In this document: positions 6,539 to 30,258 of the stretch, piece after piece
How positions within the stretch are numbered: the first letter of the stretch is position 1
How the letters are laid out: each line of letters starts with the position of its first letter
Source of the DNA: Candidatus Parcubacteria bacterium
GTDB lineage: Bacteria; Patescibacteriota; Minisyncoccia; Phycocordibacterales; PALSA-1337
Length of the DNA: 64,000 nucleotides
NCBI GenBank assembly: GCA_041158765.1
Contig: JBEBAU010000018.1
Span: 2,557 to 66,556 of the forward strand
Direction of reading: 5' to 3'
The notes under the pieces: model-generated
Told to the model about the DNA's origin: nothing
What the model saw: the letters and a program-made list of their open reading frames with translations, nothing else
Database searches by the model: none
Translations under genes and position numbers: made by a program

Positions 6539-6570
6539 TTCTTGGTATACTGTTTGTCATGAATCACCTC

Positions 6571-8647: not shown

Positions 8648-8772
8648 CTTTTTTGTGAGGGATTGACAAAGCGCGATTTTTACGCTACTTTTTGATGCAT
8701 TGTAGTACCCGTGATGTGCCTGTAGCATGTTTCGGTTAGATTGAAAAAAACAACCTCCGCCACCAATTAGTT

Positions 8773-9135
8773 ATGATATTAGCCACACTCTATCACCCGA
8801 AGAGTTCTTTGGGTCCGCATCAAGCTGCGGTGATTTTGCAAACGTTCCCTGATCTTTTCCGGAACGCTGTGTATCAGGATCAGCCACAGAGCAATCGCGC
8901 TCGTAACAAAGTGTTTCTGGAAATTCGTGAATATTCTGGAAATGCAGTTACTCCGCGAATGCTGATCGTGATTGAAGTTGTGGGGCAGTTGGTCAGTAAC
9001 CACCCACTCTACAGCGAAGAGGGCTGCCGCGCTCTGAAGGATTCAATTTTGAAAAAAAATCCTGCAGCTCCCCAGAGTTTGAGCATTTTCGACTTCGACC
9101 TTGTCGTGAAATTCGCGTCCGGCATCGTTGCTTGA
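8773..9135 (+). CDS. Hypothetical small protein in a GC-elevated segment
   Basis: 120-aa ORF followed by a terminator; competing 74-aa ORF on the minus strand; coding status uncertain. Confidence 0.25.
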   Translation: MILATLYHPKSSLGPHQAAVILQTFPDLFRNAVYQDQPQSNRARNKVFLEIREYSGNAVTPRMLIVIEVVGQLVSNHPLYSEEGCRALKDSILKKNPAAPQSLSIFDFDLVVKFASGIVA

Positions 9136-9155
9136 ACTTTTCTTGTGCGACACAC

Positions 9156-9190
9156 CAAAGCCTTTCTTTTTGAAAGGCTTTTTATTTTTC
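9156..9190 (+). terminator. Intrinsic terminator (aaagccttt/aaaggcttt + T-tract)
   Basis: 9-bp stem then tttttattttt. Confidence 0.6.
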
Positions 9191-9250
9191 ACAATATATA
9201 GACACCGCCATAAACTCGAAAAAAAACCATAAATCTGTTATATTGCTCGC

Positions 9251-11137
9251 ATGGATACAAAGCTCAGCTCAGCCCAAATACGTTCACGATTCCTCGCTTT
9301 CTTCGAGAAGCGAGGGCATACAATCATACCTTCTGCATCTCTCGTTACGAGCGATGAAAAGGGTGTAACCAATCCTACACTTTTCAACACTGCTGGTATG
9401 CAACCGCTCATACCATATCTTCTTGGTAAGCCATATATTAAGGACGGCGCGACTGTCACTCGTCTTGCTGATTCACAGAAGTGCGTTCGTACTATTGATA
9501 TTGATGATATTGGTGATAAGACACATGCTACTTTTTTTGAAATGCTTGGTAATTGGTCTCTTGGTGATTATTTCAAAAAAGAGGCTATTGAATGGAGTTT
9601 TCAATTCTTAACTAATCCAGTTGATGCCCCGAAGGGTGATGCTGGTCTTGGTCTCAATCCAAACCGTCTTTACGTCAGTGTTTTCGAAGGTGATGCTGTT
9701 GCGCCACGTGATGAAGAAGCAGCTGAAATTTGGCGAGCTATTTTCAAAAAGAATGGTATTGATTTTGGTGGGGATACAACACAAGGTGAAGCTGGTCGCA
9801 TTTTCTATTTGCCTGCAAAAAATAATTGGTGGGAAGCTGGAGACAATGGTCCATGCGGTCCTGATACAGAGATGTTTTATGATGTTGAAAATACATTCGG
9901 TGGCAAGCTTCTCACGCACGCTGAGTATGTGAAGGCTGATGATGAGCGAACCGTGCTCGAGATTTGGAATGATGTATTCATGCAGTATGAAAAGAAGGAC
10001 GGCAAAGTCATCGGCAAACTTCCAAAGCCATCTGTTGATACAGGCGCCGGCCTTGAGCGTCTCACAATGACATTACAGGGTGTGGATAATATTTACGATA
10101 CGGATTTGTTGAAGCCCGTTATGGATCTCATGAAGAATCCAAATGCAGATATTCGTAATAAACGAATAGTTGCAGATCATCTTCGAGCAAGCGTTTTCAT
10201 GATTTCAGATGGTGTTATTCCATCAAATACTGATCGAGGATACATCCTCCGTCGTCTTATTCGTCGCGCGGTTATGAATACAACCGATAAGAAGCTTGAT
10301 GCACCACGAGTGAATGCATTCGTTACTACACTTGTGCAGATTTATGCCGATTCATATCCAGAACTTACGAATGGTGTTGAACAAATAAAAAAAGTTTTAC
10401 TTGAAGAGTGTGAAAAGTTTGCTAAGACACTCGAGCAAGGTATGAAAGAATTCGATAAGGTTACTCAGGGAGTGAGTGAAATTTCTGGTCCTGTTGCTCT
10501 TACACTTTCATCATCATTTGGTCTGCCAATCGATTCGATTGAAGAACTCGCAAAAAGTCATGGTAAAACTGTGAATATCGCAGAATATCTTACAGAATTC
10601 AAAAAACACCAAGACCTCTCTCGTGCGGGTGCAGAACAGAAGTTCAAGGGTGGTCTTGCTGATGCAAATGATCCGATGGTGCTTCGATATCATACAGCTA
10701 CGCACCTTCTTCATCAGGCACTTCACGATGTACTTGGCGAAGAATCAGGGGGTCAGAAGGGTTCGAATATCACCGCTGAGCGATTACGTTTTGATTTCAT
10801 GGGTATCAAGCTTACTGACGAGCAAAAGAAGCGAGTTGAGGATATTGTGAATGAAAAAATTGCCCTCAAATTACCAATGAATAAAGTGGTTCTTCCAAAG
10901 AGTGAGGCAGAGAAGACTGGTGCACGGCATTTCTTTGGTGAAAAGTACGGCGATGAAGTTTCAATTTATTTCATTGGTACTGATCTTGCTCATGCTTACT
11001 CAAAAGAGTTCTGTGGAGGTCCACACGTTACCAATACTGCTGATCTTGCAGGGCCTGAAGGCACGTGGAAATTCAAAATCCAAAAAGAAGAAGCTGTTTC
11101 ACAGGGTGTTCGACGTATCAAAGCTGTTTTGCAGTAA
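9251..11137 (+). CDS. alaS: Alanyl-tRNA synthetase, compact form lacking the C-Ala domain
   Basis: Class II AlaRS catalytic core at the N-terminus; editing-domain motifs HTATHLLHQALHDVLG and CGGPHV; only 628 aa. Confidence 0.85.
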   Translation: MDTKLSSAQIRSRFLAFFEKRGHTIIPSASLVTSDEKGVTNPTLFNTAGMQPLIPYLLGKPYIKDGATVTRLADSQKCVRTIDIDDIGDKTHATFFEMLGNWSLGDYFKKEAIEWSFQFLTNPVDAPKGDAGLGLNPNRLYVSVFEGDAVAPRDEEAAEIWRAIFKKNGIDFGGDTTQGEAGRIFYLPAKNNWWEAGDNGPCGPDTEMFYDVENTFGGKLLTHAEYVKADDERTVLEIWNDVFMQYEKKDGKVIGKLPKPSVDTGAGLERLTMTLQGVDNIYDTDLLKPVMDLMKNPNADIRNKRIVADHLRASVFMISDGVIPSNTDRGYILRRLIRRAVMNTTDKKLDAPRVNAFVTTLVQIYADSYPELTNGVEQIKKVLLEECEKFAKTLEQGMKEFDKVTQGVSEISGPVALTLSSSFGLPIDSIEELAKSHGKTVNIAEYLTEFKKHQDLSRAGAEQKFKGGLADANDPMVLRYHTATHLLHQALHDVLGEESGGQKGSNITAERLRFDFMGIKLTDEQKKRVEDIVNEKIALKLPMNKVVLPKSEAEKTGARHFFGEKYGDEVSIYFIGTDLAHAYSKEFCGGPHVTNTADLAGPEGTWKFKIQKEEAVSQGVRRIKAVLQ

Positions 11138-11209
11138 TATTGCTCATTGCACATTCGTATTGTTTGAATTATCACCACCTGTGATTCACGGCTGTGATAT
11201 ACTAGACGC

Positions 11210-12460
11210 ATGTCCTTCACATCACTTTTTCGCCATACAGAAAAAGCTACAGTAGAACAGGGTGCCGGTGCACTTTGGGCGCTTATCGACATTCAGAGTG
11301 GTCTTGTTCGAGGTTCTCTCGTACTTTTGAATCCGGGTAAGCCTTCACGTATTCTATATACAACACAACACCAGCTCCCACACAAAACAATTGCAAGTTC
11401 AGCGTATATTACCAAGATGATGCTGAAAGGCGTTTCTGAGGTTGCCGCAGAATTAAGCAAAAAAGGCTTCATCAGTGCTGATGTTGGTGGTACTGTGGAT
11501 TCTTCTGGACAGCAATTTGGATATCACGGCAATCTCGCTGGCGTGCATTACATTCTTTCATCTCCTTGGGTAATATCTCAGACAAAAACAGTAAAAATTG
11601 CATATGACAAACCAACAGTTATTACTCAAGCAACTGTTCAAGGGGTTATCGATCGAGCTCGTGCCGAACTTGAAGCGGGAGAATTTAATTTTGATGCAAT
11701 TTCAATTGAACAAAAAATATTTGAAGTGAAACTTAACGGCTATTCGGTCGGTAATTATGAAGGAAAGACAGCAAGTAATCTCGAAGTCTCTTGTGCGATT
11801 TCAGTAAGCTCAAATAAGATTCTTGAAAAGATTGCTACACACGCACAACGCTCGCTTCATACTAAGAGATTCCGATATCATTCAGCACTCTTACTTGAGT
11901 ATGCGGGTCTACGAAGTGTATTACGTGATCATCAAGAATACATGGTCATCCACGCTCATAGCGAATTAACCGACGTGGTGGTAGTGAGAGCTGGAATGTG
12001 CGCATTCCTTTCATCATTTCCATTCGGAATATTCACGGTGCTCCGCAAAATCGCAAGAACAACTCGCCAGACGGTATCTATTGCTGATTCAACACTCGCT
12101 TTGTATGACCATAGTAATGAAAGTTCCGGCTCTATTCCAAAAAGCCTTTCTCGAGAAGAACAGATTAGATTGGAACCAGTGATTTCTGCTATCGGCAAAG
12201 GATGGATTCACGATCTCCATGCTGCTCTTGCACATGCTGGAGAACGAATGGTTATTCCACGTTTGATTGTGCTTTCTGCACATAGTCATTTGTCGTTTTT
12301 CAAAAGCGAGCTCGAAAAGTCAGCTCCAGTAGGGTCTGCGCCAGCCATTTCAGCTTTGGAGCTTCCGGTGATAGAACCATTCGTGCAGTATGATCCGGGA
12401 CAAGTACGAAGTTTGCGAATGGGAATATATACGACAGCGATAGCAAACCTTGAAAATTAA
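11210..12460 (+). CDS. Hypothetical protein, possibly a divergent actin-like ATPase fold (FtsA/PilM/Ppx-GppA-like) with degenerate phosphate motifs
   Basis: N-terminal ALWALIDIQSGLVRGSLVLL and the later ADVGGTVDSS and VVVVRAGMCAF segments loosely resemble actin-fold phosphate/adenosine motifs; weak. Confidence 0.35.
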   Translation: MSFTSLFRHTEKATVEQGAGALWALIDIQSGLVRGSLVLLNPGKPSRILYTTQHQLPHKTIASSAYITKMMLKGVSEVAAELSKKGFISADVGGTVDSSGQQFGYHGNLAGVHYILSSPWVISQTKTVKIAYDKPTVITQATVQGVIDRARAELEAGEFNFDAISIEQKIFEVKLNGYSVGNYEGKTASNLEVSCAISVSSNKILEKIATHAQRSLHTKRFRYHSALLLEYAGLRSVLRDHQEYMVIHAHSELTDVVVVRAGMCAFLSSFPFGIFTVLRKIARTTRQTVSIADSTLALYDHSNESSGSIPKSLSREEQIRLEPVISAIGKGWIHDLHAALAHAGERMVIPRLIVLSAHSHLSFFKSELEKSAPVGSAPAISALELPVIEPFVQYDPGQVRSLRMGIYTTAIANLEN

Positions 12461-12474
12461 TTTAATATATTTTT

Positions 12475-13845
12475 ATGTCTGAAAAGAAGATGCCACAAGA
12501 TATGGTTCCAAATAATCGTCGATCGATACGTGATATCAAGGTGAAGCTTACACCTATGGATGAAAAGCCTTTGCCACGAGCCAAGGTGACTGTGAAGCCT
12601 CCGCCAGAAGTTAGAGCTGCACGACGAGCAAGTTCAAGTACAGCTTCTGGTTCTGTTTCAAAAAAGAGACATGAATCAAATCGAACTAAGATGGTATTGA
12701 TGTTTGGTATTTTGATATTGTGCATCGGTATTATTCTCGCAGCAATTTCACTTATTTTTTCAAGTGGAACTGTTGTAGTGAAACCTAAGGTGATTTCACT
12801 TGCAGTGAATACATCAGTATCCGCTCGACCGAATGCCGCGAATACCTCTGGTGGGCTTTCATACGAAGTTATTACTGCAACAAAAGACATGTACGCAACT
12901 ATTCCTTCAGTTCCTGGGCCGGCTATTCTCAAAAAAGCTACAGGAACAGTCACTCTATATAACAAATACTCTGCTACACCTCAAAAAATCGTCGCAGGTA
13001 CACGATTGAGCAATACGAAGGGTCTTATATATCGTACACAGACAGCGGTGACAATACCTGCAATGCGGGGAACAGGTAGCAAAGCCGTCGCAGGAAGTGT
13101 TGATGTGAAAGTTATTGCAGATCAAGCTGGTGCAAACTACAATGCGACACTCACAGACCTCACTGGTGATTTCAAAATTGTTGCATATAAGGGTACAACC
13201 AAATACACAACGATATTTGCGCGATCAAAGACCGACTTAGTTGGTGGATACTCAGGTGTAAGTACTGTTCCAGACAAAACTGCTCTTGCTACAACCCAAA
13301 AAGGTCTTTCACAAACACTCAAAGCACAACTTCTCGCAGATTCAAAGACATTGATACCAAAGGGTTATGTTTCATACAATGCCGCAGATCAGATTTCATA
13401 TACTATGATTGATCCAGTTGCGAAGGGTACAAGCAGTGCGTCTGTAGGTGTGAAGGCAACCTATTCAACATATATTTTCAAATCAGTTGATTTGGTTAAT
13501 ACATTTGCAAAAGATCAGGTCGCACAGTTTCCATCAGGAGGATTCACTATCGAGGGTCTTGATGCGCTCAATGTTCAAATTGCTTCTTCAACAGCAGCCG
13601 CTGGATTATCAGCTTCATCATCAAAACCAATTTCATTTGGTTTGAAAGGGGATATCCGTCTTGTCGGTATTGTACCTGTGGATAAGTTGAAGCAAGAGCT
13701 TGTAGGAATAGCCCTTTCCGACACTGCTGGAGTAATAAAACGCTATAGTACAATTGCGAGCGCCTATGCTAAAATATCTCCTGTCTGGATGCGTTCAATG
13801 CCTGATAGTCCAGAGCGTATTACCGTAGAAATTCAGTCAGAATAA
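12475..13845 (+). CDS. Hypothetical bitopic membrane protein (basic cytoplasmic N-terminus, one TM helix, large Thr/Ser/Ala-rich extracytoplasmic domain)
   Basis: TM segment MVLMFGILILCIGIILAAISLIF after a K/R-rich N-terminus; no family recognised. Confidence 0.45.
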   Translation: MSEKKMPQDMVPNNRRSIRDIKVKLTPMDEKPLPRAKVTVKPPPEVRAARRASSSTASGSVSKKRHESNRTKMVLMFGILILCIGIILAAISLIFSSGTVVVKPKVISLAVNTSVSARPNAANTSGGLSYEVITATKDMYATIPSVPGPAILKKATGTVTLYNKYSATPQKIVAGTRLSNTKGLIYRTQTAVTIPAMRGTGSKAVAGSVDVKVIADQAGANYNATLTDLTGDFKIVAYKGTTKYTTIFARSKTDLVGGYSGVSTVPDKTALATTQKGLSQTLKAQLLADSKTLIPKGYVSYNAADQISYTMIDPVAKGTSSASVGVKATYSTYIFKSVDLVNTFAKDQVAQFPSGGFTIEGLDALNVQIASSTAAAGLSASSSKPISFGLKGDIRLVGIVPVDKLKQELVGIALSDTAGVIKRYSTIASAYAKISPVWMRSMPDSPERITVEIQSE

Positions 13846-13896
13846 CCTCAAGTTGGGGTCAAAAAGGCAGCCAACACGGAAATCCCCGTGCTGGTA

Positions 13897-13925
13897 TTGA
13901 CTTTTTTTGTGCTTTCAGCTACTAT
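13897..13925 (+). promoter_or_regulatory. Sigma-70-like promoter TTGACT-17-TACTAT upstream of infA
   Basis: Seen in sequence; about 60 nt upstream of the infA ATG. Confidence 0.5.
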
Positions 13926-13984
13926 GGTTCGACGCGTTACGTTTGGTGTATCGCGATGTTCTCTAGTCTCTATTTCGAAAAACC

Positions 13985-14203
13985 TTGGCAAAAATTTCCG
14001 CAAATAATCTCACATTTGGAGTAGTTACAGAAGCGTTGCCTGATACGCTTTTCCGAGTGAAGCTTGATGGAAAAGATGATGTGGTGCTTGCATATCTCGC
14101 TGGCAAGATGCGCATGCATCGGATCAAGGTGCTTATCGGCGATCGAGTAGAGTTGGCACTTGACCCATACGGGGGACGTGCACGCGTCACCAAACGTTTG
14201 TAG
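13985..14203 (+). CDS. infA: Translation initiation factor IF-1
   Basis: 72-aa S1-like protein; TLFRVKLDGKDDVVLAYLAGKMRMHRIKVLIGDRVELAL matches IF-1. Confidence 0.9.
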   Translation: MAKISANNLTFGVVTEALPDTLFRVKLDGKDDVVLAYLAGKMRMHRIKVLIGDRVELALDPYGGRARVTKRL

Positions 14204-14262
14204 CAAAGAGTTAGACATGACCGCAGAAATACATTTCAAATCAAAAAAAGCAAAATAATATT

Positions 14263-14379
14263 ATGAAAGTAAAAGCATCAGTAAAAAAGATTTGTCCAAA
14301 GTGTAGCGTTGTTCGACGCAAGGGTTATGTATACATTATCTGCAAGGCAAATCCTCGCCACAAGCAGAGACAGGGCTAA
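14263..14379 (+). CDS. rpmJ: 50S ribosomal protein L36 (38 aa; below the ORF-track size cutoff)
   Basis: Translated by hand: [38 protein letters not shown], with the zinc-ribbon C-x2-C...C...H pattern of L36; lies between infA and rpsM as expected. Confidence 0.85.
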
Positions 14380-14412
14380 TACGAATTATTTCAATATCAT
14401 TATATTAATCAC

Positions 14413-14793
14413 ATGCGTATCCTCGGTATCACAATTCCAGACGGCAAGCGACTCGAAATAGCTCTCACAGCTCTTTATGGTATTGGCCGATCTCGTGCAC
14501 TACATATTCTCAAGGAAGCACAGGTTGATGTTGCTATCAAAGCAAAGGATGTAACAGTTGATCAGGAGAATGCTATTCGTAAAGTTATCGAAACATTCAG
14601 AATCGAAGGAGATTTGAAGCGAGAAGTTGCTTCGAATATTAAGCGTCTCAAGGACATCAAGTCATTCCGTGGAAGCCGACACGCACGACGTCTCCCAGCT
14701 CGAGGGCAGCGTACCAAGACCAACTCCCGAACTGTACGAGGTAACGTCCGAAAGACTATGGGATCTGGACGAAAGAAGGAGGAGAAGAAATAA
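14413..14793 (+). CDS. rpsM: 30S ribosomal protein S13
   Basis: MRILGITIPDGKRLEIALTALYGIGRSRA... canonical S13. Confidence 0.9.
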   Translation: MRILGITIPDGKRLEIALTALYGIGRSRALHILKEAQVDVAIKAKDVTVDQENAIRKVIETFRIEGDLKREVASNIKRLKDIKSFRGSRHARRLPARGQRTKTNSRTVRGNVRKTMGSGRKKEEKK

Positions 14794-20268: not shown

Positions 20269-23244
20269 ATGGCGTCAAAATCTTTTTCAAAATCTGTCTT
20301 CAAAACCCGCTACGCACAGCTTAATCCGAAGCAAAAGAAGGCTGTAGATACCATAGATGGCCCTGTAATGGTCATTGCGGGCCCTGGAACAGGTAAGACG
20401 TCTATTCTTACACTTCGTATCGCAAACATCCTAGAAAGGACAGATACACCAGCGAATGGAATCCTCGCTATCACATACACTGACGCAGGTGTGAAAGCAA
20501 TGCGCATGAAGCTCAAAGAAATCATTGGCGATCAAGCTCATGATGTAAAAATTTTCACATTCCACGGCTTCGCTGCGGCAATGATTGCTGAATATCCAGA
20601 CCATTTCCTTCATCTTGGAGAAATGAAACAAATGACGGATATTGAACAAGAGTCATTAATTCGAAAGATTATTTCGGAGTCACGGTTTTCAGATTTGAGG
20701 CCGCTTGGTAAACCAGATGCATATGTTTCAACTATTATTCGATCTATTGATGAAACAAAACGCGAAGCACTAACACCTGAAATGGTAATTGCACATGCCG
20801 AAGCAGAGATAGAGCGAATTTCAAAAGACGAGGATTCTATTTCAACTCGAGGTGCAACAAAAGGCCTCTTGAAAGCAGATGCACGCGAAGCTATCGAGAA
20901 GTGCAAGCGAACGAAGCTCTTCGCTGGAGTATATGAATTATATGAAAAAGAGAAGCGGGAGATGAAAAAGATGGATTTCAATGATCTTATTATTGAAATA
21001 CTTACAGCATTTCGAAATGATGAATTATTGCTTCGATTGATTCAGGAACGATTCTTGTATATTCATGTTGATGAACATCAGGATACGAATGATGCACAGA
21101 ACTTCATTGTGGCACTTATTGCAGAGTTTTTTGAAACACCAAACGTATTCATTGTGGGAGATGAAAAGCAGGCTATCTATCGTTTCCAAGGTGCTTCCGT
21201 CGAAAACTTTTTGCGTATGCAAAAGCGTTGGCCTGCAATGGAGCTCATTTCACTTGATACGAATTATCGCTCACATCAGAGCATTCTCGATGCTTCATAT
21301 GCAATGATTGAACACAACTATGGTGATGAAAAAGAGCATGCTGAATTGCGAATTAGGCTAGAATCGGGGCTTGATGAAACAGCTCGGCCGATCGAGATCG
21401 TGACCGGAGAGAATGTCGCGGCGGCCGAGCTGTATATGGTCAAAGAGCTCCAGAATCTCACTGAGAAGGAACCCGAAGCGAGCGTAGCTATTATTGTGCG
21501 AAGAAATCGTGATCTTGATCGAGTAATTCGTCTTCTTGAGTCAAATAATGTCCCTGTTTCATCTGAGCGAAGTGTGGATATTTTTAATCATCCAATTGGT
21601 TCGCTCTTTTTCGAACTCATTACGTATCTTGCGGATTCAACACGAATAGATGCACTTGCAAAGACCGTAATGATGGGACTTTGGGATATCTCTTTTGAAG
21701 AAGGGGCGCTATTCGTGCGTAAACTTTCAAGTGGACAGTCAGGTGAAATCAGCGATAAGATTCCAGCTATTACTCGTCTTCGATCACGACTTATGTCTGA
21801 CGGGGCTGTTGCTTTCCTTATTCACTTGGCCGAGGAATCAGGTTTCATTAAGTTGGTTGCTACTGACCCTTCATATGTTCATGTGTGGCGAGGTATTGTT
21901 GCACTTGCCGAATCACTTACACGTGAAAGTGAAATTCGTGACCCAATGAAACTCATGCACGATATGCTTGCATATCGAACTTCTGCCGAGACTCGCACGG
22001 TCAAAGTCGCAGTGGGAGCACCGCATGTTGCGATACAAGCTATGACAGCTCACGGTAGCAAGGGTCTTGAATTTGATTACGTATTCATACCATATGCTAA
22101 TGAAGAGGGTTGGGTGGGACGATCTCGTGGTAATTCATTTGTATTACCAAAAAAGCAGACAGTAGATAGCGATATTCGCGATATTCGCCGGCTCTTTTAT
22201 GTTGCAGTGACACGTGCACGCAAACACGTGGTAATTCTTCCTGCACTCGAAGAATCTGATGGTAAAATTTTGACTCCAATTCGTTTCATATCAGAACTAG
22301 ATGAAAAGCATGTAGTTACAGCGACATTGCCGCGCATTGGTATTGAAAGCATACACACAGCTATCGAAGATCAGACTGGTGCTCATTCTGCCGAAATTGC
22401 TATTCAAAAAAAGCTTATTGATATGACTAAGCATGTGCTTGTTGAAAAGGGTCTTTCGGTGACCGCTCTCAATCACTTTCTTACATGTCCGAATCGATTT
22501 TTGTATCAGAGTATTTTGAAATTACCACAAGCCCCTTCAGTTCCTGCAGAAAAGGGAAATGCAATGCACTCCGCTATTGCTCGGGTATGGAATTCAGAGT
22601 CAAGACAAGAGAGTGGAGCCACCTCTAGAATCGAGAGCACACTTACCGAAGCCGTAGCTGAATATATGAGTGAATCTCTTCTCCCCGTGCTCGAAAAGGA
22701 CGCAGTAAAAAAAGAGCTTTTTGATTCTATTCCTGATGTTGCACGAGAATTGACTCCGCATTTTCATGTTTCAACATCTACTATGGGAATTTTTGTTGAA
22801 TCATGGGCTGAGACACTTTTCACCGGTTCATATGAAAAAACACCTATTCATATTCCACTTCACGGCAAGCTTGATGCCGTCATTGATACTGGTAGCTCAG
22901 TACAGGTGTTTGATTACAAAACTCGCCAAGCAATGTCGGTGAATGCAATTATGGGTGAAACAAAATCTTCAGATGGAAGTTATTTCCGCCAACTTATTTA
23001 TTATCAAATGCTCCTCCAGAATGATATTCGATGGAAGGGGAAGAAGATTGTTCCTTCACTTGTATTCGTTTCACCAGATGAAAAAGGCCGTTGCCCAATT
23101 GTTTCATTGCCAATTCAAGAAACTGATATTGCACGGGTAAAAGATGAAATACAAAAACTCATTGAGAGTGTCTGGAGTGGTGCTATTGCTCGCACAAAAT
23201 GTGACGATCAAAAGTGTGAGTGGTGCCCAATGCGCTCACTCTAA
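20269..23244 (+). CDS. UvrD/PcrA-family superfamily 1 helicase fused to a C-terminal PD-(D/E)XK Cas4/AddB-like nuclease domain with a 4-Cys cluster
   Basis: Walker A VIAGPGTGKTS and UvrD-type motifs in the N-terminal half; C-terminal ...VFDYKT... nuclease motif with Cys in LTCPNRF and KCDDQKCEWCP. Confidence 0.75.
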   Translation: MASKSFSKSVFKTRYAQLNPKQKKAVDTIDGPVMVIAGPGTGKTSILTLRIANILERTDTPANGILAITYTDAGVKAMRMKLKEIIGDQAHDVKIFTFHGFAAAMIAEYPDHFLHLGEMKQMTDIEQESLIRKIISESRFSDLRPLGKPDAYVSTIIRSIDETKREALTPEMVIAHAEAEIERISKDEDSISTRGATKGLLKADAREAIEKCKRTKLFAGVYELYEKEKREMKKMDFNDLIIEILTAFRNDELLLRLIQERFLYIHVDEHQDTNDAQNFIVALIAEFFETPNVFIVGDEKQAIYRFQGASVENFLRMQKRWPAMELISLDTNYRSHQSILDASYAMIEHNYGDEKEHAELRIRLESGLDETARPIEIVTGENVAAAELYMVKELQNLTEKEPEASVAIIVRRNRDLDRVIRLLESNNVPVSSERSVDIFNHPIGSLFFELITYLADSTRIDALAKTVMMGLWDISFEEGALFVRKLSSGQSGEISDKIPAITRLRSRLMSDGAVAFLIHLAEESGFIKLVATDPSYVHVWRGIVALAESLTRESEIRDPMKLMHDMLAYRTSAETRTVKVAVGAPHVAIQAMTAHGSKGLEFDYVFIPYANEEGWVGRSRGNSFVLPKKQTVDSDIRDIRRLFYVAVTRARKHVVILPALEESDGKILTPIRFISELDEKHVVTATLPRIGIESIHTAIEDQTGAHSAEIAIQKKLIDMTKHVLVEKGLSVTALNHFLTCPNRFLYQSILKLPQAPSVPAEKGNAMHSAIARVWNSESRQESGATSRIESTLTEAVAEYMSESLLPVLEKDAVKKELFDSIPDVARELTPHFHVSTSTMGIFVESWAETLFTGSYEKTPIHIPLHGKLDAVIDTGSSVQVFDYKTRQAMSVNAIMGETKSSDGSYFRQLIYYQMLLQNDIRWKGKKIVPSLVFVSPDEKGRCPIVSLPIQETDIARVKDEIQKLIESVWSGAIARTKCDDQKCEWCPMRSL

Positions 23245-23988
23245 CTATTGACCCAAAAGACCATCAAGAGCGTTCTTGAGGGTTGCGTATGACTGTGCGC
23301 CGTTTACAGGGATTTGTTTGCCATTTGCTGTGATAATGACGCTATAAGGAGTGCCTGAAACCCCAGCATTAATTCCTTCGAGATAATCTGCATCAACCTC
23401 TGCCTTGTTTTTGCCGCTGCTTAGGCATGTTTTGAATTCTGTTTTGTCGAGACCGGCGTACACTGCGATTTCGGGAAGTTGCGCAGGGTTGAGTCCTTCT
23501 GGTGTAGCGTTGGTAACTGAAGGTGTTATTGAATAGAGGCGATTCGCATATGCCCAAAACTTGTCATTACCACCAAGATCAGCTGCACATTCCATAGCCT
23601 GTGCTTCGGTGCCAGCGTTCTTATGAAGAATATTGCCGTTCTCATCTGCTTGATCAAGAGGGAAATGACGATACACCCAAGCTACATTTCCAGTTTTGCC
23701 ATACTCAGTCATAACCTGAAGCATTGTTGCGTGGAATATTTTGCAGAATGGACATGAAGCATCAGAGTATTCAACAATCTTTATTTTTGCATTTGGATTA
23801 CCCAAAATATGGTCGTCGCTCGTCACGGCTCTTACTTCTTGAATCTGTGAAGGAATTTGCTGTGCAGTAACTGCTGCAGGGACAGGCTTTTTTGTCCAAA
23901 TAACCGCACCTGCGATAATTGCACCAGCAACAATAATAGCAACAGGAATTGTGATAACTGATTGAGGTTTTGGTTGATTTGGTTCCAT
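23245..23988 (-). CDS. DsbA-family thiol:disulfide oxidoreductase, membrane-anchored
   Basis: N-terminal TM anchor then a thioredoxin-like domain with active site SCPFCK (CPFC). Confidence 0.75.
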   Translation of the reverse strand: MEPNQPKPQSVITIPVAIIVAGAIIAGAVIWTKKPVPAAVTAQQIPSQIQEVRAVTSDDHILGNPNAKIKIVEYSDASCPFCKIFHATMLQVMTEYGKTGNVAWVYRHFPLDQADENGNILHKNAGTEAQAMECAADLGGNDKFWAYANRLYSITPSVTNATPEGLNPAQLPEIAVYAGLDKTEFKTCLSSGKNKAEVDADYLEGINAGVSGTPYSVIITANGKQIPVNGAQSYATLKNALDGLLGQ

Positions 23989-24026
23989 ATTTTTATTAGG
24001 TTATGTGTTGATAGTATATCACGGAC

Positions 24027-24647
24027 CTAAAATGGCAATGTGAAAGTCATCGCCTCGCCCCCAGCTGTTTCCCAATGTGTTGTATCAAGCTTGATGTCTT
24101 TGATTGCATTACCGGGTCCAAAATCTCGATACTTTATGTGCTTATTTTTCAGAGCGTATTCATAGAGCTCTTTTGTAATTTTCACATCTTCGAGACAATA
24201 CTTGATGATTTTGTCTATTTCACCACTTTTCCACCATGCAATAGCTTCGAGACCATGACCAGACTTCTTTTTGCCTAGAGTTGCTTCGGCGAGTGTGTCG
24301 AGTTTGATGCGTTTGCCGAGAGAATTCCGTACTTCAACAAGGAGATCGAGACTCTTTATTTTTGAAAGGTCACCAGAGTAGTATTTGTTGAGCAGTGGTA
24401 TATCAAAATGTTCTCCATTGAACGTAATGAGCATATCCGCTTGTTCAATAATCGGCCAAAGCTTCGGTAAGTCCTCAACAAGATAGCTCGAGTATCCTGA
24501 ACCGGGTTCTGACGGAGCCTTGCCAGTGCCATCATCTGCAGCTGAATCGTGAATACACACAACAGATATATCAAGCGCTGAAGATTCGGTTGAACCGACT
24601 TCCTGAAAGGTGTTTCGTGTTTCAATATCAAAAGTAATTTTGCGCAT
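24027..24647 (-). CDS. DEDD-type 3'-5' exonuclease (RNase H-like fold; PolB-exonuclease-like, YprB-type)
   Basis: Exo I FDIET, Exo II FNGEHFDIPLL, Exo III YCLEDV motifs. Confidence 0.7.
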   Translation of the reverse strand: MRKITFDIETRNTFQEVGSTESSALDISVVCIHDSAADDGTGKAPSEPGSGYSSYLVEDLPKLWPIIEQADMLITFNGEHFDIPLLNKYYSGDLSKIKSLDLLVEVRNSLGKRIKLDTLAEATLGKKKSGHGLEAIAWWKSGEIDKIIKYCLEDVKITKELYEYALKNKHIKYRDFGPGNAIKDIKLDTTHWETAGGEAMTFTLPF

Positions 24648-24776
24648 ATAGTGTGGTGTTGAGTGTGTGTAGTTTGTATTGTGTGTCGCTGTATTGTACG
24701 GGAATGATACATGACGGGCAAGTTCGGTGTGGAATTACGTATTTGAGTGACTATATCGGTATGGTAGTATTATTGT

Positions 24777-27700
24777 ATGAAAATGTACTATAAATTGGTG
24801 TTTTTTATTGCAGTTTTTATTTTTATTCCACTAAGTAGTGCATCAGCACAGACAGCAATTGGATCAGTTGTCACTGCTCCAAACTGGGGCTGTAGTTCTA
24901 CAGATACAGCACATCCATTTATTACTCGAACAGATATCATTTACGATGTATATAATACACCACAGTCATTTTATCCTCTGACACAGTCTTGTGTTTCAGG
25001 TACACTACTCGTCTCATATTCTGATGTCTTAGATATAACTCTATACTCCACAACTACCATGGAGATATCCTGCGTCGAAAGTGTTGGTGGAGTCTGGACA
25101 AAAGGTACTATCAAGATTACCGGACCAGGTACATTCAATAACGACAAAAACCCAATAGTCTGTCCAGGATCAATTTGGCAAGGGGGAATTTTTGCTAATT
25201 CATTTATTTTGAAATCAAATGCTGTTGCTGCAACATCAACCCTTGTTTCAGCAACCGCTGCTTCATCGACACTCACACTTACGGGTACCGGCTTTAGTCC
25301 TACAGGAAACACCGTGGTTGTAACATCTTCTGCTGGAGTTTCAGTTACTATTCCTAATGTCTCAAGTATTTCAAGCACTTCGATGGTTGTTACTTTGCCA
25401 TCGGGTTACACAATTGCAGATACATATACCGTAAAGGTTTTGCCATCTGGCGGATCTCTATATAGCAATACTACGAGTTTCACAATTAGGTCAGTAGACA
25501 TTGCTGTTATCACAGTTACAGGAGCAATGTTGAGCGGTGCAATATGTAATTGGGTAGATACCAATATTACTGGGCCAAATAAACTACAGAAGACACTTTG
25601 TATTGCGCCTTTCATGAAAAGCACAGCTAAAGTTGTGAAGCAGATAAAAGATGCTACAGATGCTGCTCTCGCCGCAAATAAAAAAGTGATGATTGTAAGT
25701 CAGTGTATCGGATCACTTATAGCGTATAACGTTATCGCTCAGTATTACAAAACATATGTTGATAAGGGTCTTGTTGAAATTGTATACGTTGATCCTCCAT
25801 ACGGTGGTTCATTCGCGAATGCACTTTTTAGCCGAGTTTTCCCGGGACAATATGCACCACGCGCACAAGCAATTGCTGGTGGTATCAAATATGACTCTCG
25901 AATGATTGATTGGACACGAGGAGAAGGACTTCTACATTTGTTTACACACGATGCTTTCACCTATCCAAATTACGGAAAGAATTCAACGAATCTTGCCGCT
26001 TTGAGTAATGTGATCCAAAAAAAGGTCACGACTCTAGCTTCAACTAGCCCAACACCATTTTCACCACAGGGTGGAATTATGATTGCAAGTGCACCAGTTG
26101 TTTCTGGCGTGAGCGTGGATGGTGTGAATAGCGAGTCAATTACAACTGATCAAGATATAACGGTGAATGCTACGGGTCTTCAGGGTGATGGAAACTATAT
26201 CTATATTCAGAATAATGAAAATCCGCAGATTTATTACACAATATACGGATTGCTTCCTGCAGGCGCTGGAGATTCGCTTATTTTCAATCTTCCTCTCAAA
26301 CCAGAGCTGGGCTTCGATGTAACGCCAGGTTCATACTCATTGTTTGTTGGTGCGCGTGATAGCGATTTGAGTAATAGTTTTACAATCAATATTGCTTCTC
26401 CAAGACTCGGTATACCACCATCTGTTACAGATCTTCCAATGAATATGAAATCTGGGGACATGGTAAGTATTCAGGGTAGCGGATTTCAGCCAGCAGGGAA
26501 TCAGGTGCGTTTTGTACTCGTACCAAATCCAACACAGAGCGCTAACGTAATTGATTTGTGGAATGTACTGATAGATTTCTTTTTGAAAATAAAAAATAAA
26601 TTACTTACACTTGTTTTTGCCCAGACAATTTCAGGTGAATCTCTAGTTGGTTTTGTTCCTGATTATATTATTAGAGACATTCCAAGTAACGGCACTTCAC
26701 TTTCATTCTCTCTTCCTTCAGATATTCCGAGCGGAACATATCTTGTCTCTGTTGCGGGACCTGATACTAATTGGACACCGGGCACAGCAACAGTTATTAC
26801 TAACACCCGAGCAGGTCAGTCGGTAATTTATCAAACATCAGACAGCGTTGCCGCTCAAACAATATACGGATGTTATATCGGATATTCATTTGATTCCGCT
26901 ACCAATCCAAACGCATCTAAGGGATATTCAACTAATGCTTCTGACCTTTGTTATTACCAATACGGCGGTAATAAAGCTTCACAGATTGTGGGATATTCAT
27001 GTCCAACAGGATATACACTCAATAATGAAACGAAGATGTGTCTTTCAACTCAATCAGGCCCAATTACTATCGGACCAGTTGTGAAGGCGTACACATGTCC
27101 TTCAGGACACGGTATTGTTACATCGAATATCTGTGCATATTTTCCAACCGGACTTTGGTCAACAGCAAAAGCAACATATACTTGCCCGATCGGATATAGC
27201 ATTACCGGTAGTACGTGTACGGTAAGTGTTCCAACAGGATTAACGGCGGTTTCAAAAAGTATTGGAACAGTAGATCTTTCATGGAAAAATGTGAAAACGC
27301 TCTACGCTGATTCTCTTGTTCTAGAGCGCGCTACTAATGTTGCTGGTCCATTCACAACGATTGCAACATTGAGCACTTCAAGCCTCAAATATTCTGATAA
27401 GAATCTTTCTTCACAAGAGAAGTATTCATATCGAGTTCGCATCCTTCGAACTGATGGTTCATATTCAAATCCAACAAATACCGTTACAGTATCAACCAAG
27501 GCTGTCTCTGTTCCAGTAATTACTCTCGCCACAAAAGCCGGCACTTCAACAATAGCTTTGAAATTGGCTGGAAAAGACGCCCTTCTCGGATTTAATTTGT
27601 TTGGTGGTTCTACTGGGGTGATGGATTTCATCATCGCAACAACCTCAAAGACATATACAGTTCGTGATCTTGCTCCATCAACTAAATACTGTTTCGTTGC

Positions 27701-28028
27701 ACAGGCAATATTCAATGAATTGAGTGTTTCAACCTCATCAAAGGCTCTCTGCGCCACGACTGCAGCAGTTGCAACACCGGTGAATACAACACCAGCTACA
27801 ACCGCTACACCGGCTGCAAATACCGCTGCACCAACTACTGTGTCAGCCTCAGTTGGCGGATATACATGTCCAACAAATTACACATATGTGTCTGCAAGTT
27901 CAGGAATGGGTAATTGTCTTGCAACAATATTCTTCTCAGGTCCAGCACCAACACCTCCAATACCAACACCGATATACACATGCCCAAGCGGATATGTATT
28001 AGGAACTGGTGGAGTCTGCAGCAAATAA
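24777..28028 (+). CDS. Large (1083-aa) secreted cell-surface protein with a signal peptide, IPT/TIG-like and fibronectin-III-like domains and five copies of a short Cys motif (YTCPxGY...C)
   Basis: Signal peptide MKMYYKLVFFIAVFIFIPLSSASA; FN3-like VPTGLTAVSKSIGTVDLSWKN...YSYRVRIL; repeats GYSCPTGYTLNNETKMC, YTCPSGHGIVTSNIC, YTCPIGYSITGSTC, YTCPTNYTYVSASSGMGNC, YTCPSGYVLGTGGVC. Confidence 0.6.
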   Translation: MKMYYKLVFFIAVFIFIPLSSASAQTAIGSVVTAPNWGCSSTDTAHPFITRTDIIYDVYNTPQSFYPLTQSCVSGTLLVSYSDVLDITLYSTTTMEISCVESVGGVWTKGTIKITGPGTFNNDKNPIVCPGSIWQGGIFANSFILKSNAVAATSTLVSATAASSTLTLTGTGFSPTGNTVVVTSSAGVSVTIPNVSSISSTSMVVTLPSGYTIADTYTVKVLPSGGSLYSNTTSFTIRSVDIAVITVTGAMLSGAICNWVDTNITGPNKLQKTLCIAPFMKSTAKVVKQIKDATDAALAANKKVMIVSQCIGSLIAYNVIAQYYKTYVDKGLVEIVYVDPPYGGSFANALFSRVFPGQYAPRAQAIAGGIKYDSRMIDWTRGEGLLHLFTHDAFTYPNYGKNSTNLAALSNVIQKKVTTLASTSPTPFSPQGGIMIASAPVVSGVSVDGVNSESITTDQDITVNATGLQGDGNYIYIQNNENPQIYYTIYGLLPAGAGDSLIFNLPLKPELGFDVTPGSYSLFVGARDSDLSNSFTINIASPRLGIPPSVTDLPMNMKSGDMVSIQGSGFQPAGNQVRFVLVPNPTQSANVIDLWNVLIDFFLKIKNKLLTLVFAQTISGESLVGFVPDYIIRDIPSNGTSLSFSLPSDIPSGTYLVSVAGPDTNWTPGTATVITNTRAGQSVIYQTSDSVAAQTIYGCYIGYSFDSATNPNASKGYSTNASDLCYYQYGGNKASQIVGYSCPTGYTLNNETKMCLSTQSGPITIGPVVKAYTCPSGHGIVTSNICAYFPTGLWSTAKATYTCPIGYSITGSTCTVSVPTGLTAVSKSIGTVDLSWKNVKTLYADSLVLERATNVAGPFTTIATLSTSSLKYSDKNLSSQEKYSYRVRILRTDGSYSNPTNTVTVSTKAVSVPVITLATKAGTSTIALKLAGKDALLGFNLFGGSTGVMDFIIATTSKTYTVRDLAPSTKYCFVAQAIFNELSVSTSSKALCATTAAVATPVNTTPATTATPAANTAAPTTVSASVGGYTCPTNYTYVSASSGMGNCLATIFFSGPAPTPPIPTPIYTCPSGYVLGTGGVCSK

Positions 28029-28047
28029 TAACAGTTTTGAGAAAGAG

Positions 28048-29373
28048 TTAGAGTGAAAGAGAAGTCTCTACTCCAGAAACGAGCGTCTTGATCTTCAAGA
28101 TGCCGTTTTTTGTTTCTTCATCGCCAATGACGATGATATGTGGGACACCGCGCTTGTCTGCGGCTTTGATTTGATCGCCGATTTTGCGTCCAGAAATATC
28201 TACTGAAATTCGTGGTGAATTAATTCCTAATACTGTCTGTTCGCGGAGCTTTTTTGCGATAGCAAGTGCATAGTTTGTATTCTGTTCTCCAACAACAATA
28301 ATCATAATATCAGCAGGCGTAGATGCAGGGGGGAGTGAACCATATGTATCCATAAGATCAGATGCAATGACGTCTCCCATACCAAAACCAACAGCAGAGA
28401 CTTTGTCGCCACCAAACAAATCAAGGAGATCATCGTAGCGACCACCACCAGCAACAGATCGACGATTCTCTGGATTCTTGTCAAAAATTTCAAATACTAT
28501 ACCCGTATAGTAATCAGAACCACGTGTAAGTGTTTGATCAAAGACAGCATTGGTAATGCCAAGTTCCTCAAGCCCTGCGAGTACAGCTTTTATTTCACTA
28601 ATGCCTTCGTGTTCTTCGGTTGTTTGAGGGAGATTACTTGTGAATTCCTCGAAGTTTTTTGAATTGAGAATAGTAAGGAGCTTCGCGGTTTTTGTTTCAT
28701 CACCAAGTACTTCACTAATTGCGGTGACGAATACCTCCTTGGGCATCTTGTTCTTGCGATCGATTGCCTTCAAAAGTGCATTTGCTTTCACTTCATCAAG
28801 ACCGAATATATCACGACCGATATAGTTCATGACCTTGCGATTGTGAATACGAATTTCAAAATCAGTGTCTGTGAGACCAAGCTTGCGAGTAATATCGTAT
28901 GCGATTTGAATACATTCAATCTCAGCGGCGAGACTTGATACGCCGAAAATATCCATATTATATTGCCAAAATTCACGAAGACGACCGCGCTGAGGATTCT
29001 CATATCTGAAAAGGTTCGGTATCGAATACCAACGAAGAGGGTATACAAGTTCGCGCTTACGAGCAGCAACCATGCGGGCAACTGTCGGTGTCATTTCTGG
29101 TCGAAGCGTTACTTCACGGTCACCTCGATCGATAAAGGTATATGTCTGTTGATTGATGATTTCTTCGCCAGACTTAGCTCGATAGAGATCTGCTGGCTCA
29201 AGAACAGAAGCGTTGTATTCTTCATAGCCATACTTCTCACTCACACTGCGCCAAATATCAAAAATGTGCTTCTCAACAGCCATATCTGCCGGAAAGAAGT
29301 CTCGAACGCCTTTGTAGCTCTCGGTTGAGAGCTTGGGGTTAGCTTTTGCCTTGTGTTCATTCATGGGGTACAT
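28048..29373 (-). CDS. hisS: Histidyl-tRNA synthetase
   Basis: Class II core motifs (TYTFIDRGDREVTLRPEMT, FRYENPQRGRLREFWQ) and a C-terminal anticodon-binding domain; start trimmed to an internal Met (MYPMNEHK) to avoid overlap with truB. Confidence 0.85.
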   Translation of the reverse strand: MYPMNEHKAKANPKLSTESYKGVRDFFPADMAVEKHIFDIWRSVSEKYGYEEYNASVLEPADLYRAKSGEEIINQQTYTFIDRGDREVTLRPEMTPTVARMVAARKRELVYPLRWYSIPNLFRYENPQRGRLREFWQYNMDIFGVSSLAAEIECIQIAYDITRKLGLTDTDFEIRIHNRKVMNYIGRDIFGLDEVKANALLKAIDRKNKMPKEVFVTAISEVLGDETKTAKLLTILNSKNFEEFTSNLPQTTEEHEGISEIKAVLAGLEELGITNAVFDQTLTRGSDYYTGIVFEIFDKNPENRRSVAGGGRYDDLLDLFGGDKVSAVGFGMGDVIASDLMDTYGSLPPASTPADIMIIVVGEQNTNYALAIAKKLREQTVLGINSPRISVDISGRKIGDQIKAADKRGVPHIIVIGDEETKNGILKIKTLVSGVETSLSL

Positions 29374-29385
29374 TGTAGCTAATAT

Positions 29386-30258
29386 ATGCCAGACAAACAA
29401 GAAAAAAGCGCAGCGAAGGCTGTTTTGGCGCGCACAAGTCCCGTGATCGTCTTTCAGAAAAAGCTTGGCGAAACGCCGTTGGCCGCTCTTGAGCGTGCGC
29501 GTATTGAGTATGGAATTGCTGTAGATGTGCCCATGACATATGCAGGGAGGCTTGATCCGATGGCAGAAGGTGTGTTGTTGTTGCTTGTTGGGGAAGAGTG
29601 CAAGAAGAAGGGTGAGTATCTTGGACTCGATAAAGAGTATGAGGTAGAGATTGTTTTCGGGATCTCGACAGATACGTATGATATGCTCGGCTTGGCGGAG
29701 GCGCCTGACGGGCGCAACGGGTCATATATGCATACTGCAAAAATCGAACAGTTGATGGCTGTGGATTTTCAAAAATATGTTGGAAAGTTCTCGCAACCGT
29801 ATCCGGCTTTTTCTTCTAAGACTGTTGGTGGCGTGCAATTGCATACACTTGCGCGAGCGGGGGAGCTGCCAGATGAAAATGAAATGCCATCAAAAGATGT
29901 GGAAATATATTCTATTGAGGTGGTTGATGAAAAAACAAAAAATATGGACGGTGTGAAAGGTGTGGCGCAGGGGATTTCAGCTGAAAAGTTGCGTGAGCGA
30001 ATTATGAGTGGAATTGAGCTGGTGAAGGGGGATTTTCGGCAGGAGGAAATCATTAAACAGTGGGATTCAGTTTTTCGGACAGTTGAATTCGGTGGCAGTC
30101 AATTCAAGTGTCCGAATTTCCGAATTGTGCGTATACGTGTGAAATGTTCGAGCGGCACATATATGCGCTCTCTGGCTGAAAGAATCGGGCGAGAACTCGG
30201 TGTGGGTGGGTTTGCGCTTTCAATTAAAAGGCTTTCTGTGGGGTCGTTTCGTCTATAA
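29386..30258 (+). CDS. truB: tRNA pseudouridine(55) synthase TruB
   Basis: Catalytic motif AGRLDPMAEGVLLLLVG (TruB family); typical length. Confidence 0.85.
   Translation: MPDKQEKSAAKAVLARTSPVIVFQKKLGETPLAALERARIEYGIAVDVPMTYAGRLDPMAEGVLLLLVGEECKKKGEYLGLDKEYEVEIVFGISTDTYDMLGLAEAPDGRNGSYMHTAKIEQLMAVDFQKYVGKFSQPYPAFSSKTVGGVQLHTLARAGELPDENEMPSKDVEIYSIEVVDEKTKNMDGVKGVAQGISAEKLRERIMSGIELVKGDFRQEEIIKQWDSVFRTVEFGGSQFKCPNFRIVRIRVKCSSGTYMRSLAERIGRELGVGGFALSIKRLSVGSFRL

Follow-up and report, generated by a model that had tools for sequence, protein, structure and literature searches.

A large secreted protein beside a conserved DsbA-like gene in Candidatus Parcubacteria: probable member of an undescribed family rather than a dedicated folding client

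A 64,000-nucleotide stretch of the genome of a Candidatus Parcubacteria bacterium (contig JBEBAU010000018.1 of assembly GCA_041158765.1, positions 2,557 to 66,556; called the window below) contains a gene for a DsbA-like oxidoreductase positioned 0.8 kb from a gene for a 1083-residue secreted protein with repeated cysteine pairs. The arrangement raises the question of whether the enzyme is a private folding catalyst of its neighbour, as proposed in an initial annotation of the window, or whether the two genes are adjacent for another reason. The comparison of related genomes and proteins favours the interpretation that the large protein, which evolves fast, belongs to a hitherto undescribed family of large proteins secreted by Paceibacteria (Parcubacteria) and that it has no dedicated DsbA partner. 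We consider this interpretation rather probable. A dedicated pair, if true, would mean that a minimal cell keeps a folding catalyst for a single client; the comparative data speak against it.

The three open reading frames (ORFs) on which the proposal was based, encoding the DsbA-like protein, an exonuclease, and the 1083-residue protein, are all present. The dsbA gene (23245..23988, minus strand) encodes 247 residues and is preceded on the same strand by exo (24027..24647), the product of which is a 206-residue RNase-H-fold 3'-5' exonuclease. The annotation of exo as a 3'-5' exonuclease gene is consistent with its Pfam matches to RNase_H_2 (3e-11) and DNA_pol_B_exo2 (3e-6); the product is PolB-exo-like. 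The large gene (24777..28028) is located on the plus strand and is followed by the histidyl-tRNA synthetase gene hisS (28048..29400, minus strand), which was identified from the Pfam annotation of locus L001 and from synteny. The distance of 0.8 kb between dsbA and the large gene is thus correct, but dsbA does not lie upstream in the sense of a shared transcription unit: the minus strand carries both dsbA and exo, which diverge from the large gene. The opposite strands and the exonuclease gene in between indicate that dsbA and the large gene are not co-transcribed. A promoter and terminator scan of positions 23100-28200 identified 13 promoter-like sites, which is not in excess of the 14.1 found in shuffled sequences.

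When 185,579 genomes, each representing a species, were scanned with the DsbA sequence, 80 loci with DsbA orthologues (40–63% identity) were obtained together with up to 10 kb of flanking sequence on each side, 1.23 Mb in total. All but two of the loci, which have proteobacterial titles, belong to Patescibacteria or to metagenome-assembled genomes of unclassified bacteria. In 22 related Paceibacteria genomes, including those of loci L007 and L019, the genes are arranged in the order hisS-exo-dsbA, usually with a helicase gene beside dsbA, and the large gene is absent. The three genes are adjacent in most of these genomes; hisS directly abuts or overlaps exo, in some cases by 4 bp. The preservation of the hisS-exo-dsbA string in the 22 relatives that do not have the large gene indicates that dsbA is a conserved housekeeping gene.

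The absence of the large gene extends to all the DsbA loci that were retrieved. A tblastn search with the large protein against the 80 loci gave zero matches at E<=1e-3, whereas the same search recovered family members in loci L082-L089 and L103-L107 with E-values of 1e-15 to 1e-107. Six copies of the cysteine-repeat motif are present in the 1.23 Mb, each of them in a short frame that is not coding. Viewed from the other side, the contexts of nine other family members were examined, eight of which could be checked, since neither DNA nor usable annotation was obtained for the contig of P0021. No DsbA gene was present in the available flanks of seven of the eight (P0004, P0005, P0009, P0022, P0023, P0039, and P0044). 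P0005 and P0009 adjoin genes for RuvX, a tRNA-binding protein, and a VTT-domain protein, and the remaining five are located at other places. According to the initial annotation, a lack of co-occurrence of the two genes among relatives would refute the pairing. Co-occurrence is restricted to one of the eight contexts, and the proposed pairing fails this test. DsbA is also distributed far more widely, with 110 orthologues confirmed in one scan, than the family of the large protein, which is represented by 48 cluster representatives among 1.84 billion proteins. The proximity of the two genes and the approximately ten disulfides predicted in the large protein are what a DsbA dedicated to the cysteine-repeat protein, with the genes held together for this purpose, would lead one to expect. 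Considering the strand arrangement and the distributions of the two genes, we regard such a pair as very improbable.

Dedicated DsbA-client pairs do exist: DsbL and AssT in uropathogenic Escherichia coli, and SrgA and PefA in Salmonella. In these systems the two genes are inherited together, and the DsbA is an additional paralogue. The Parcubacteria locus resembles them in that a DsbA-like gene is located less than 1 kb from a gene for an exported protein containing predicted disulfides. It differs in that its dsbA is the conserved syntenic copy, the client is absent from 22 relatives, and the relatives of the client occur without DsbA. The DsbA encoded in the window is general rather than dedicated, and its adjacency to the large gene is positional, not functional. 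A client relationship between the two proteins is biochemically likely but would not be exclusive.

One locus complicates this conclusion. In L085 (JGI Ga0495369_0000437, positions 8530-14527), the genes dsbA (minus), exo (minus), P0011 (plus), and hisS (minus) are arranged in the same order and orientation as in the window. P0011 is a divergent member of the family, with 28% sequence identity to the large protein of the window. In a neighbour-joining tree calculated from the histidyl-tRNA synthetase, exonuclease, and DsbA sequences, the window is placed beside L007 and L085 beside L019, and thus L085 represents a lineage that is not sister to that of the window. The occupation of the same slot in the same orientation makes a non-random link of the family to this locus possible. 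However, L007 and L019, the nearest relatives of the two carriers, do not have the large gene. The gene was therefore either present ancestrally and lost repeatedly, or entered the locus repeatedly by insertion or recombination.

The intervals around exo hold a variety of other genes in the relatives. Among loci L002-L072, they contain genes for SPFH-like, ZIP-like, UppP-like, ABC transporter, and pilin-like proteins, and for a secreted protein of 917 residues. Examples are L020 (6385-9138), L015 (8522-9340), and L051 (8151-8657); the type IV pilin-like genes carry FTLIELLVVISIIG. Such unrelated cargo indicates that the hisS-exo-dsbA interval is a variable slot within a conserved string, occupied by genes for exported or membrane proteins that vary from lineage to lineage. 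The large gene would have been inserted into this string of co-directional genes in the opposite orientation, and would be located beside dsbA for that reason.

The DsbA-like protein itself has the sequence features of a thiol:disulfide oxidoreductase. As annotated initially, it is a thioredoxin-fold protein with a CPFC motif and a predicted membrane anchor: its matches to the Pfam families Thioredoxin_4 (4e-23, 82.8 bits) and DSBA (4e-18, 66.2 bits) greatly exceed the respective cut-offs of 23.2 and 25.6 bits, and the protein has one N-terminal hydrophobic segment. The segment comprises residues ~11-31 (23896..23958, minus strand), where the Kyte-Doolittle hydropathy in 19-residue windows reaches 2.6. 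Hydropathy was used here, and for the signal peptide of the large protein, as a heuristic rather than as a predictor of topology, and it does not define the orientation of the anchor. The closest solved structure is disulfide isomerase 4n30 (9e-11). The active-site CPFC of the DsbA-like protein (C79-C82; 23743..23754, minus strand) aligns with CPFC of 4n30, the sequence SGTP aligns with TATP from the cis-proline loop, and two additional cysteines also have cysteine counterparts in 4n30. By its sequence, the protein is an ordinary member of the DSBA/Thioredoxin_4 family.

The membrane-anchored DsbA-type enzymes of monoderm bacteria include BdbD of Bacillus subtilis and the actinobacterial MdbA. 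The DsbA-like protein of the window would share with them the thioredoxin fold with a helical insertion, the CPxC motif, the Thr-Pro loop that precedes the last strand, and the N-terminal anchor. It differs from BdbD and MdbA in that its activity is a prediction and in that no re-oxidising partner of the DsbB or VKOR type was found among the ten window ORFs scanned in a search of its membrane ORFs. Some relatives have more than one enzyme of this kind, as illustrated by the Parcubacteria metagenome-assembled genome SURF_53 (QZIY01), which encodes two DsbA homologues on separate contigs (L024 and L036). The window contains other exported cysteine-containing ORFs and hence other potential substrates for DsbA; for example, the ORF at positions 47701-49134 (plus strand) encodes 477 residues with eight cysteines, a signal-like N-terminal segment, a hydrophobic C-terminal segment, and a weak PKD match, and its product is likely to be an exported disulfide-containing protein. 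Literature searches for Parcubacteria with DsbA or disulfides, and for candidate-phyla-radiation bacteria with cysteine-rich surface proteins, did not return relevant publications.

The family of the large protein became apparent only when residues 1-700 served as the query of an exhaustive HMMER search, which identified the 48 relatives with E-values down to 1e-61. Word-indexed searches were less sensitive. With the whole protein, they returned only the identical entry and the matches P0002 and P0003, which are limited to FN3 domains; with the alignment of the hydrolase domain described below, they returned one protein; and with the 141-residue repeat region they returned nothing, missing even the identical entry P0001. 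A metagenome scan with alignment A2 returned 16 loci, of which three are true family loci. Many of the relatives have lengths of 900-2000 residues, whereas those that are shorter match a single domain each. The core common to the family corresponds to residues ~235-690 of the window protein, and includes an alpha/beta-hydrolase domain with flanking IPT domains. No curated model in the libraries searched matched the family as a whole. The family combines known folds (alpha/beta-hydrolase, IPT/TIG, and FN3) with two elements that do not exceed any curated threshold: a two-cysteine hairpin repeat and a motif rich in tryptophan and phenylalanine. The analysis thus defines a family of very large proteins, secreted by Parcubacteria and not yet curated, that have a compact lipase- or esterase-like domain at their centre.

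The window protein is identical to an NCBI entry named 'hypothetical protein RIT04_267, Candidatus Parcubacteria bacterium' (P0001). The entry begins at the second ATG (24783; MYYKL..., 1081 residues), whereas the longest ORF begins two codons earlier (24777; MKMYYKL..., 1083 residues). The predicted signal peptide comprises residues 1-24 (24777..24848, plus strand, as are all the following features of the protein), and was recognised from an N-terminal hydrophobic window and an AxA motif read by eye, with the putative cleavage site ...SSASA/QT. The hydropathy of the protein provides no indication of a second transmembrane segment or of a C-terminal anchor. Accordingly, the description of the protein as secreted is supported by the hydropathy profile, whereas its assignment to the cell surface is conjectural. 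The protein would be exported by the Sec system.

The signal peptide is followed by a beta-rich domain with four cysteines at residues 39, 72, 99, and 129 (24849..25226), which is common to P0046, P0036, P0041, and P0011, and has zero matches in Pfam. The next domain (residues ~155-238; 25239..25490) contains the motif TGTGFSPTGNTVVV, is matched in P0004, P0006, and P0008, and is putatively an IPT/TIG-like immunoglobulin-like (Ig-like) domain, by analogy with alignment A4 of the later IPT domains. The hydrolase domain (residues 240-425; 25494..26051) separates it from the second (residues 440-541; 26094..26399) and third (residues 545-682; 26409..26822) IPT/TIG-like domains. The third was delineated from the family alignment, and the second from family matches to Pfam TIG (PF01833). 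Of the 25 family copies, 21 match TIG, the best at 2.6e-6; the copy in the window protein is below the threshold. The family IPT profile also matches the IPT proteins 7k44 and 5e7g.

The C-terminal part of the protein begins with the first block of cysteine mini-repeats (26865..27218) and continues with two predicted FN3 domains. FN3 domain 1 (residues 817-905; 27225..27491) was assigned from PDB entry 3mpc (E 7.8e-6) and from the matches P0002 and P0003; FN3 domain 2 (residues 910-996; 27504..27764), with the cysteine pair C972-C992, was assigned from PDB entry 7jgt (E 0.006), and its matches to Pfam fn3 and Interfer-bind are both below the cut-offs. A linker rich in threonine, proline, and alanine connects the FN3 domains to the second block of mini-repeats at the C-terminus (27861..28019). 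The Ig-like and FN3-like modules predicted in the initial annotation are thus supported, the former as IPT/TIG domains at the level of the family, and the latter by resemblance to solved structures.

The initial annotation did not include the alpha/beta-hydrolase domain. Its identification is based on alignment A1, which covers the first part of the family core in 27 sequences. The Pfam family Abhydrolase_6 is matched by 25 of these, many of which have additional matches to PE-PPE, LIDHydrolase, PGAP1, Lipase_3, or LCAT; relative P0005 scores 29.1 bits against the Abhydrolase_6 cut-off of 26.3. The AlphaFold2 model calculated with A1 as input has a predicted local distance difference test score (pLDDT) of 91.2 and a predicted template modelling (TM) score of 0.89, and its best Foldseek match is PlaB, a phospholipase from Legionella (E 4e-4, TM-score 0.46). 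Together, the Pfam matches of the relatives, the confident model, and the match to PlaB indicate that residues 240-425 form a compact alpha/beta-hydrolase with the core fold of this class.

The aspartate and histidine corresponding to D339 and H391 are invariant in the 27 sequences, and a serine is nearly invariant in the sequence V-L-V-V-G-H-S-L-G. The nucleophile elbow of the relatives reads G/A-H-S-x-G. In the window protein it reads S-Q-C-I-G, which departs from the Sm-x-Ser-x-Sm pattern, and the position of the nucleophilic serine is occupied by Cys310 (TGT codon, 25704..25706). The window protein thus has a putative C310-D339-H391 triad. An independent replacement of serine by cysteine is found in P0027, with the sequence G-H-C-M-G at residue 379. 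The retention of the aspartate and histidine, the presence of cysteine rather than a residue that is not a nucleophile, and the independent G-H-C-M-G favour activity. The loss of the glycine and histidine from the elbow, together with the lack of Pfam matches, favours decay, in which case the domain may be inactive. C310 could be either a thiol nucleophile or a relic of a dead enzyme. The window gene records a natural switch from serine to cysteine at the nucleophile position.

The domain is similar to small alpha/beta-fold lipases and esterases, such as the rumen lipase Lip_vut5 (6nkg), monoacylglycerol lipases, and Legionella PlaB (6zth). In comparison to these enzymes, the family domain is short (~185 residues), does not have an evident lid, and shares 6–16% sequence identity; in the window protein, a secreted protein of more than 1000 residues, it has IPT domains on both sides, and cysteine replaces the serine. 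By analogy with these fold neighbours, the substrates are most likely esters or lipids, on which the domain would act extracellularly. Dienelactone hydrolase (1din) is a cytoplasmic alpha/beta-hydrolase with a Cys-His-Asp triad. It has no specific sequence relationship to the window protein, in which the cysteine is a recent substitution within a serine family.

The 21 cysteines of the large protein can be divided into ten pairs that are local in the sequence (39/72, 99/129, 257/275, 699/725, 742/755, 774/786, 803/814, 972/992, 1031/1047, and 1069/1081) and C310, which is the only one without a nearby partner. The obvious catalyst for oxidation of the pairs is the membrane-anchored DsbA, which would act on them as it would on other exported proteins containing cysteines; C310 would remain reduced, whether as a nucleophile or as a relic.

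Six of the ten pairs belong to the mini-repeats. The motif Y[ST]CPx[GN][YH] occurs in five copies, starting at residues 740, 772, 801, 1029, and 1067, and in each of them the second cysteine follows the first at a distance of 11-16 residues. Residues 697-725 form a sixth copy, which is degenerate (YGCYIGY...C). The first block thus contains the pairs C699-C725, C742-C755, C774-C786, and C803-C814, and the terminal block C1031-C1047 and C1069-C1081. The five mini-repeats reported initially are therefore a real feature: 1e-4 copies are expected from the composition of the protein, and only one of 20,000 shuffled sequences contained even one. Outside this protein, translation of the window in all six frames yields no further copy of the strict motif.

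A loose form of the motif has 83 matches in 18 proteins of the family. The family consensus is T-x-[TS]-Y-S-C-P-[ST]-G-Y-T-L-x(3-6)-C, mostly with 10-12 residues between the cysteines. The second cysteine is retained 8-18 residues downstream in 60 of the 63 strict cores from the 18 proteins, and in an alignment of 50 repeats both cysteines and a glycine are invariant. P0005, the relative with the most similar overall architecture, ends with ...IYSCPSGYTLNTVTATCSKH, similarly to the window protein, which ends with ...IYTCPSGYVLGTGGVCSK.

The core C-P-x-G-Y-x-L-x(n)-C is shared with the last hairpin of EGF domains (cEGF and FXa_inhibition) and with the furin-like repeats of the insulin receptor (CPSGYTMNSSNLLC) and R-spondin, as are the predicted beta-hairpin and the spacing of mostly 10-12 residues between the cysteines. 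Unlike EGF, the mini-repeat has two cysteines rather than six, a tyrosine at the position of the fourth EGF cysteine, and no N-terminal EGF subdomain; it differs from both EGF and furin-like repeats in that the units are separated by linkers rich in threonine, serine, and proline. The repeat region of P0011 has sub-threshold matches to Sushi, DUF4215, FXa_inhibition (positions 22-36 of 36; 21.7 bits against 33.4), and cEGF (positions 5-20 of 24; 14 bits against 26.6), and a Pfam scan of the window protein gave zero EGF-like matches at E<=0.1. An 18-position profile of the repeat matched the cysteine-rich module of the insulin receptor, calcium-binding EGF domains of fibrillin, and furin-like repeats of R-spondin with E-values of 0.13 or worse. 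Since all these matches are below the family thresholds, they represent resemblance and not membership. Each mini-repeat is most likely a beta-hairpin closed by one disulfide, and the repeats would serve as rigid, protease-resistant spacers in a stalk together with the IPT and FN3 modules.

Several points weigh against the interpretation of the large protein as an extracellular enzyme on a disulfide-braced stalk, unconnected to the locus in which it is found. In addition to the shared slot in L085, they are the zero Pfam matches and the eroded elbow of the hydrolase domain in the window protein, the derivation of the substrate class from fold neighbours at 6–16% identity, the assignment of signal peptide and topology from hydropathy, the sub-significant resemblance of the repeats to EGF and furin-like modules, and the structure prediction for the repeats. 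A single-sequence AlphaFold2 model of residues 680-1083 has a pLDDT of 36, although every repeat is drawn in it as a two-strand hairpin, and thus the assignment of disulfides depends on conservation and resemblance.

The low-confidence model and the non-significant matches to known disulfide modules leave room for the view that the cysteines of the repeats are free thiols or metal ligands, or have no role of their own in a beta-hairpin rich in tyrosine, glycine, and proline. Such a view has little to recommend it, and we assign it a very small probability. The pairing of the cysteines is conserved throughout the family, the other cysteines, except C310, likewise have partners close by, and a membrane-anchored DsbA is encoded in the genome of a cell that exports the protein; moreover, two cysteines and no histidine per repeat are too few for a metal site. 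The initial description of the repeats as cysteine pairs is thus supported by their conservation, whereas the hairpin fold is predicted at low confidence.

It is also possible that the protein is a non-enzymatic adhesin, in which the hydrolase domain is a dead scaffold or binding module and the Ig-like, FN3, and cysteine-hairpin modules attach to a host cell. The modules, which include several Ig-like, FN3, and EGF-like ones, are typical of adhesins, the elbow of the window copy is degraded to S-Q-C-I-G in a domain that no longer matches an alpha/beta-hydrolase family of Pfam, and the HExxH domain found in many relatives is absent. The adhesin function suggested in the initial annotation therefore agrees with the presence of binding modules, but is incomplete in that what the family conserves at its core is a hydrolase domain and not binding modules alone. 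We consider a purely adhesive role unlikely, though a serious alternative. According to the interpretation favoured here, the members of the family would be extracellular degradative enzymes displayed on Ig-like and FN3 stalks.

The second element of the family that is not represented by a curated model is an amphipathic motif. The third IPT domain contains a conserved insertion of 30-50 residues, in which an amphipathic segment rich in tryptophan and phenylalanine is followed by A-x-A-Q. In the window protein, the insertion comprises residues ~586-620 (26532..26636; ...ANVIDLWNVLIDFFLKIKNKLLTLVFAQT...) and ends with AQT; in relatives it reads NTASVWDAFxxFIKSLFGFNKASAQT. The insertion resembles a signal peptide placed inside the protein, complete with a site for signal peptidase. 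A very similar motif, ASVWDAIxxWFGxLFGF, is found at the extreme C-terminal end of P0011, P0021, P0022, P0023, P0025, P0030, P0039, and P0044, and is missing from the C-terminus of the window protein. Since it is found within an IPT domain as well as at the C-terminus, the motif may serve as a signal for anchoring or sorting that is specific to the lineage; it may also be a processing site. The two-cysteine hairpin repeat is a new element, and this amphipathic motif is an unusual one.

Twelve relatives (P0006, P0010, P0012, P0013, P0017, P0020, P0022, P0024, P0028, P0043, P0044, and P0049) contain an N-terminal HExxH...DEY motif, such as HESGHALAKLSDEY, upstream of the hydrolase domain. The motif suggests a fused zinc metallopeptidase in these proteins. 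The window protein does not have this domain. Similarity of the domain to peptidase M64 is not claimed, as P0006, the only HExGH-bearing relative that was scanned, has zero Pfam matches at E<=0.05.

Patescibacteria do not have lipid biosynthesis, and no mechanism for their uptake or breakdown of lipids has been identified (PMC11665869; PMC7242380). The lack of lipid synthesis makes a secreted lipase-like family a reasonable candidate for such a function. The family could be the missing extracellular machinery of Paceibacteria for harvesting lipids and esters, composed of lipase-like enzymes, often fused to HExxH domains, on stalks of Ig-like, FN3, and disulfide-hairpin modules, with the motif rich in tryptophan and phenylalanine as a membrane tether and the window gene as a thiol-nucleophile variant. 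In this complete form, the proposal is speculative and quite unlikely.

Whether the large gene is absent, as in the 22 relatives, or a family member is present, as in L085, the exonuclease gene is positioned between hisS and dsbA. At its other end, dsbA converges with a gene for a UvrD/PD-(D/E)XK helicase-nuclease (20269-23244, plus strand), with zero intergenic bases between them (23244/23245). The large gene and hisS also converge, and are separated by a gap of 19 bp (28028/28048). A convincing terminator was not found between the members of either convergent pair. A phage or other mobile origin was considered and rejected, as neither a set of 50,697 phage records nor IMG/VR contained a match, and no compositional anomaly was detected. 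Elsewhere in the window, an ORF of 297 residues (6511-7404, plus strand) encodes an unusual fusion, in which an ATP-cone domain is joined to a restriction-endonuclease domain of the Mrr_cat type.

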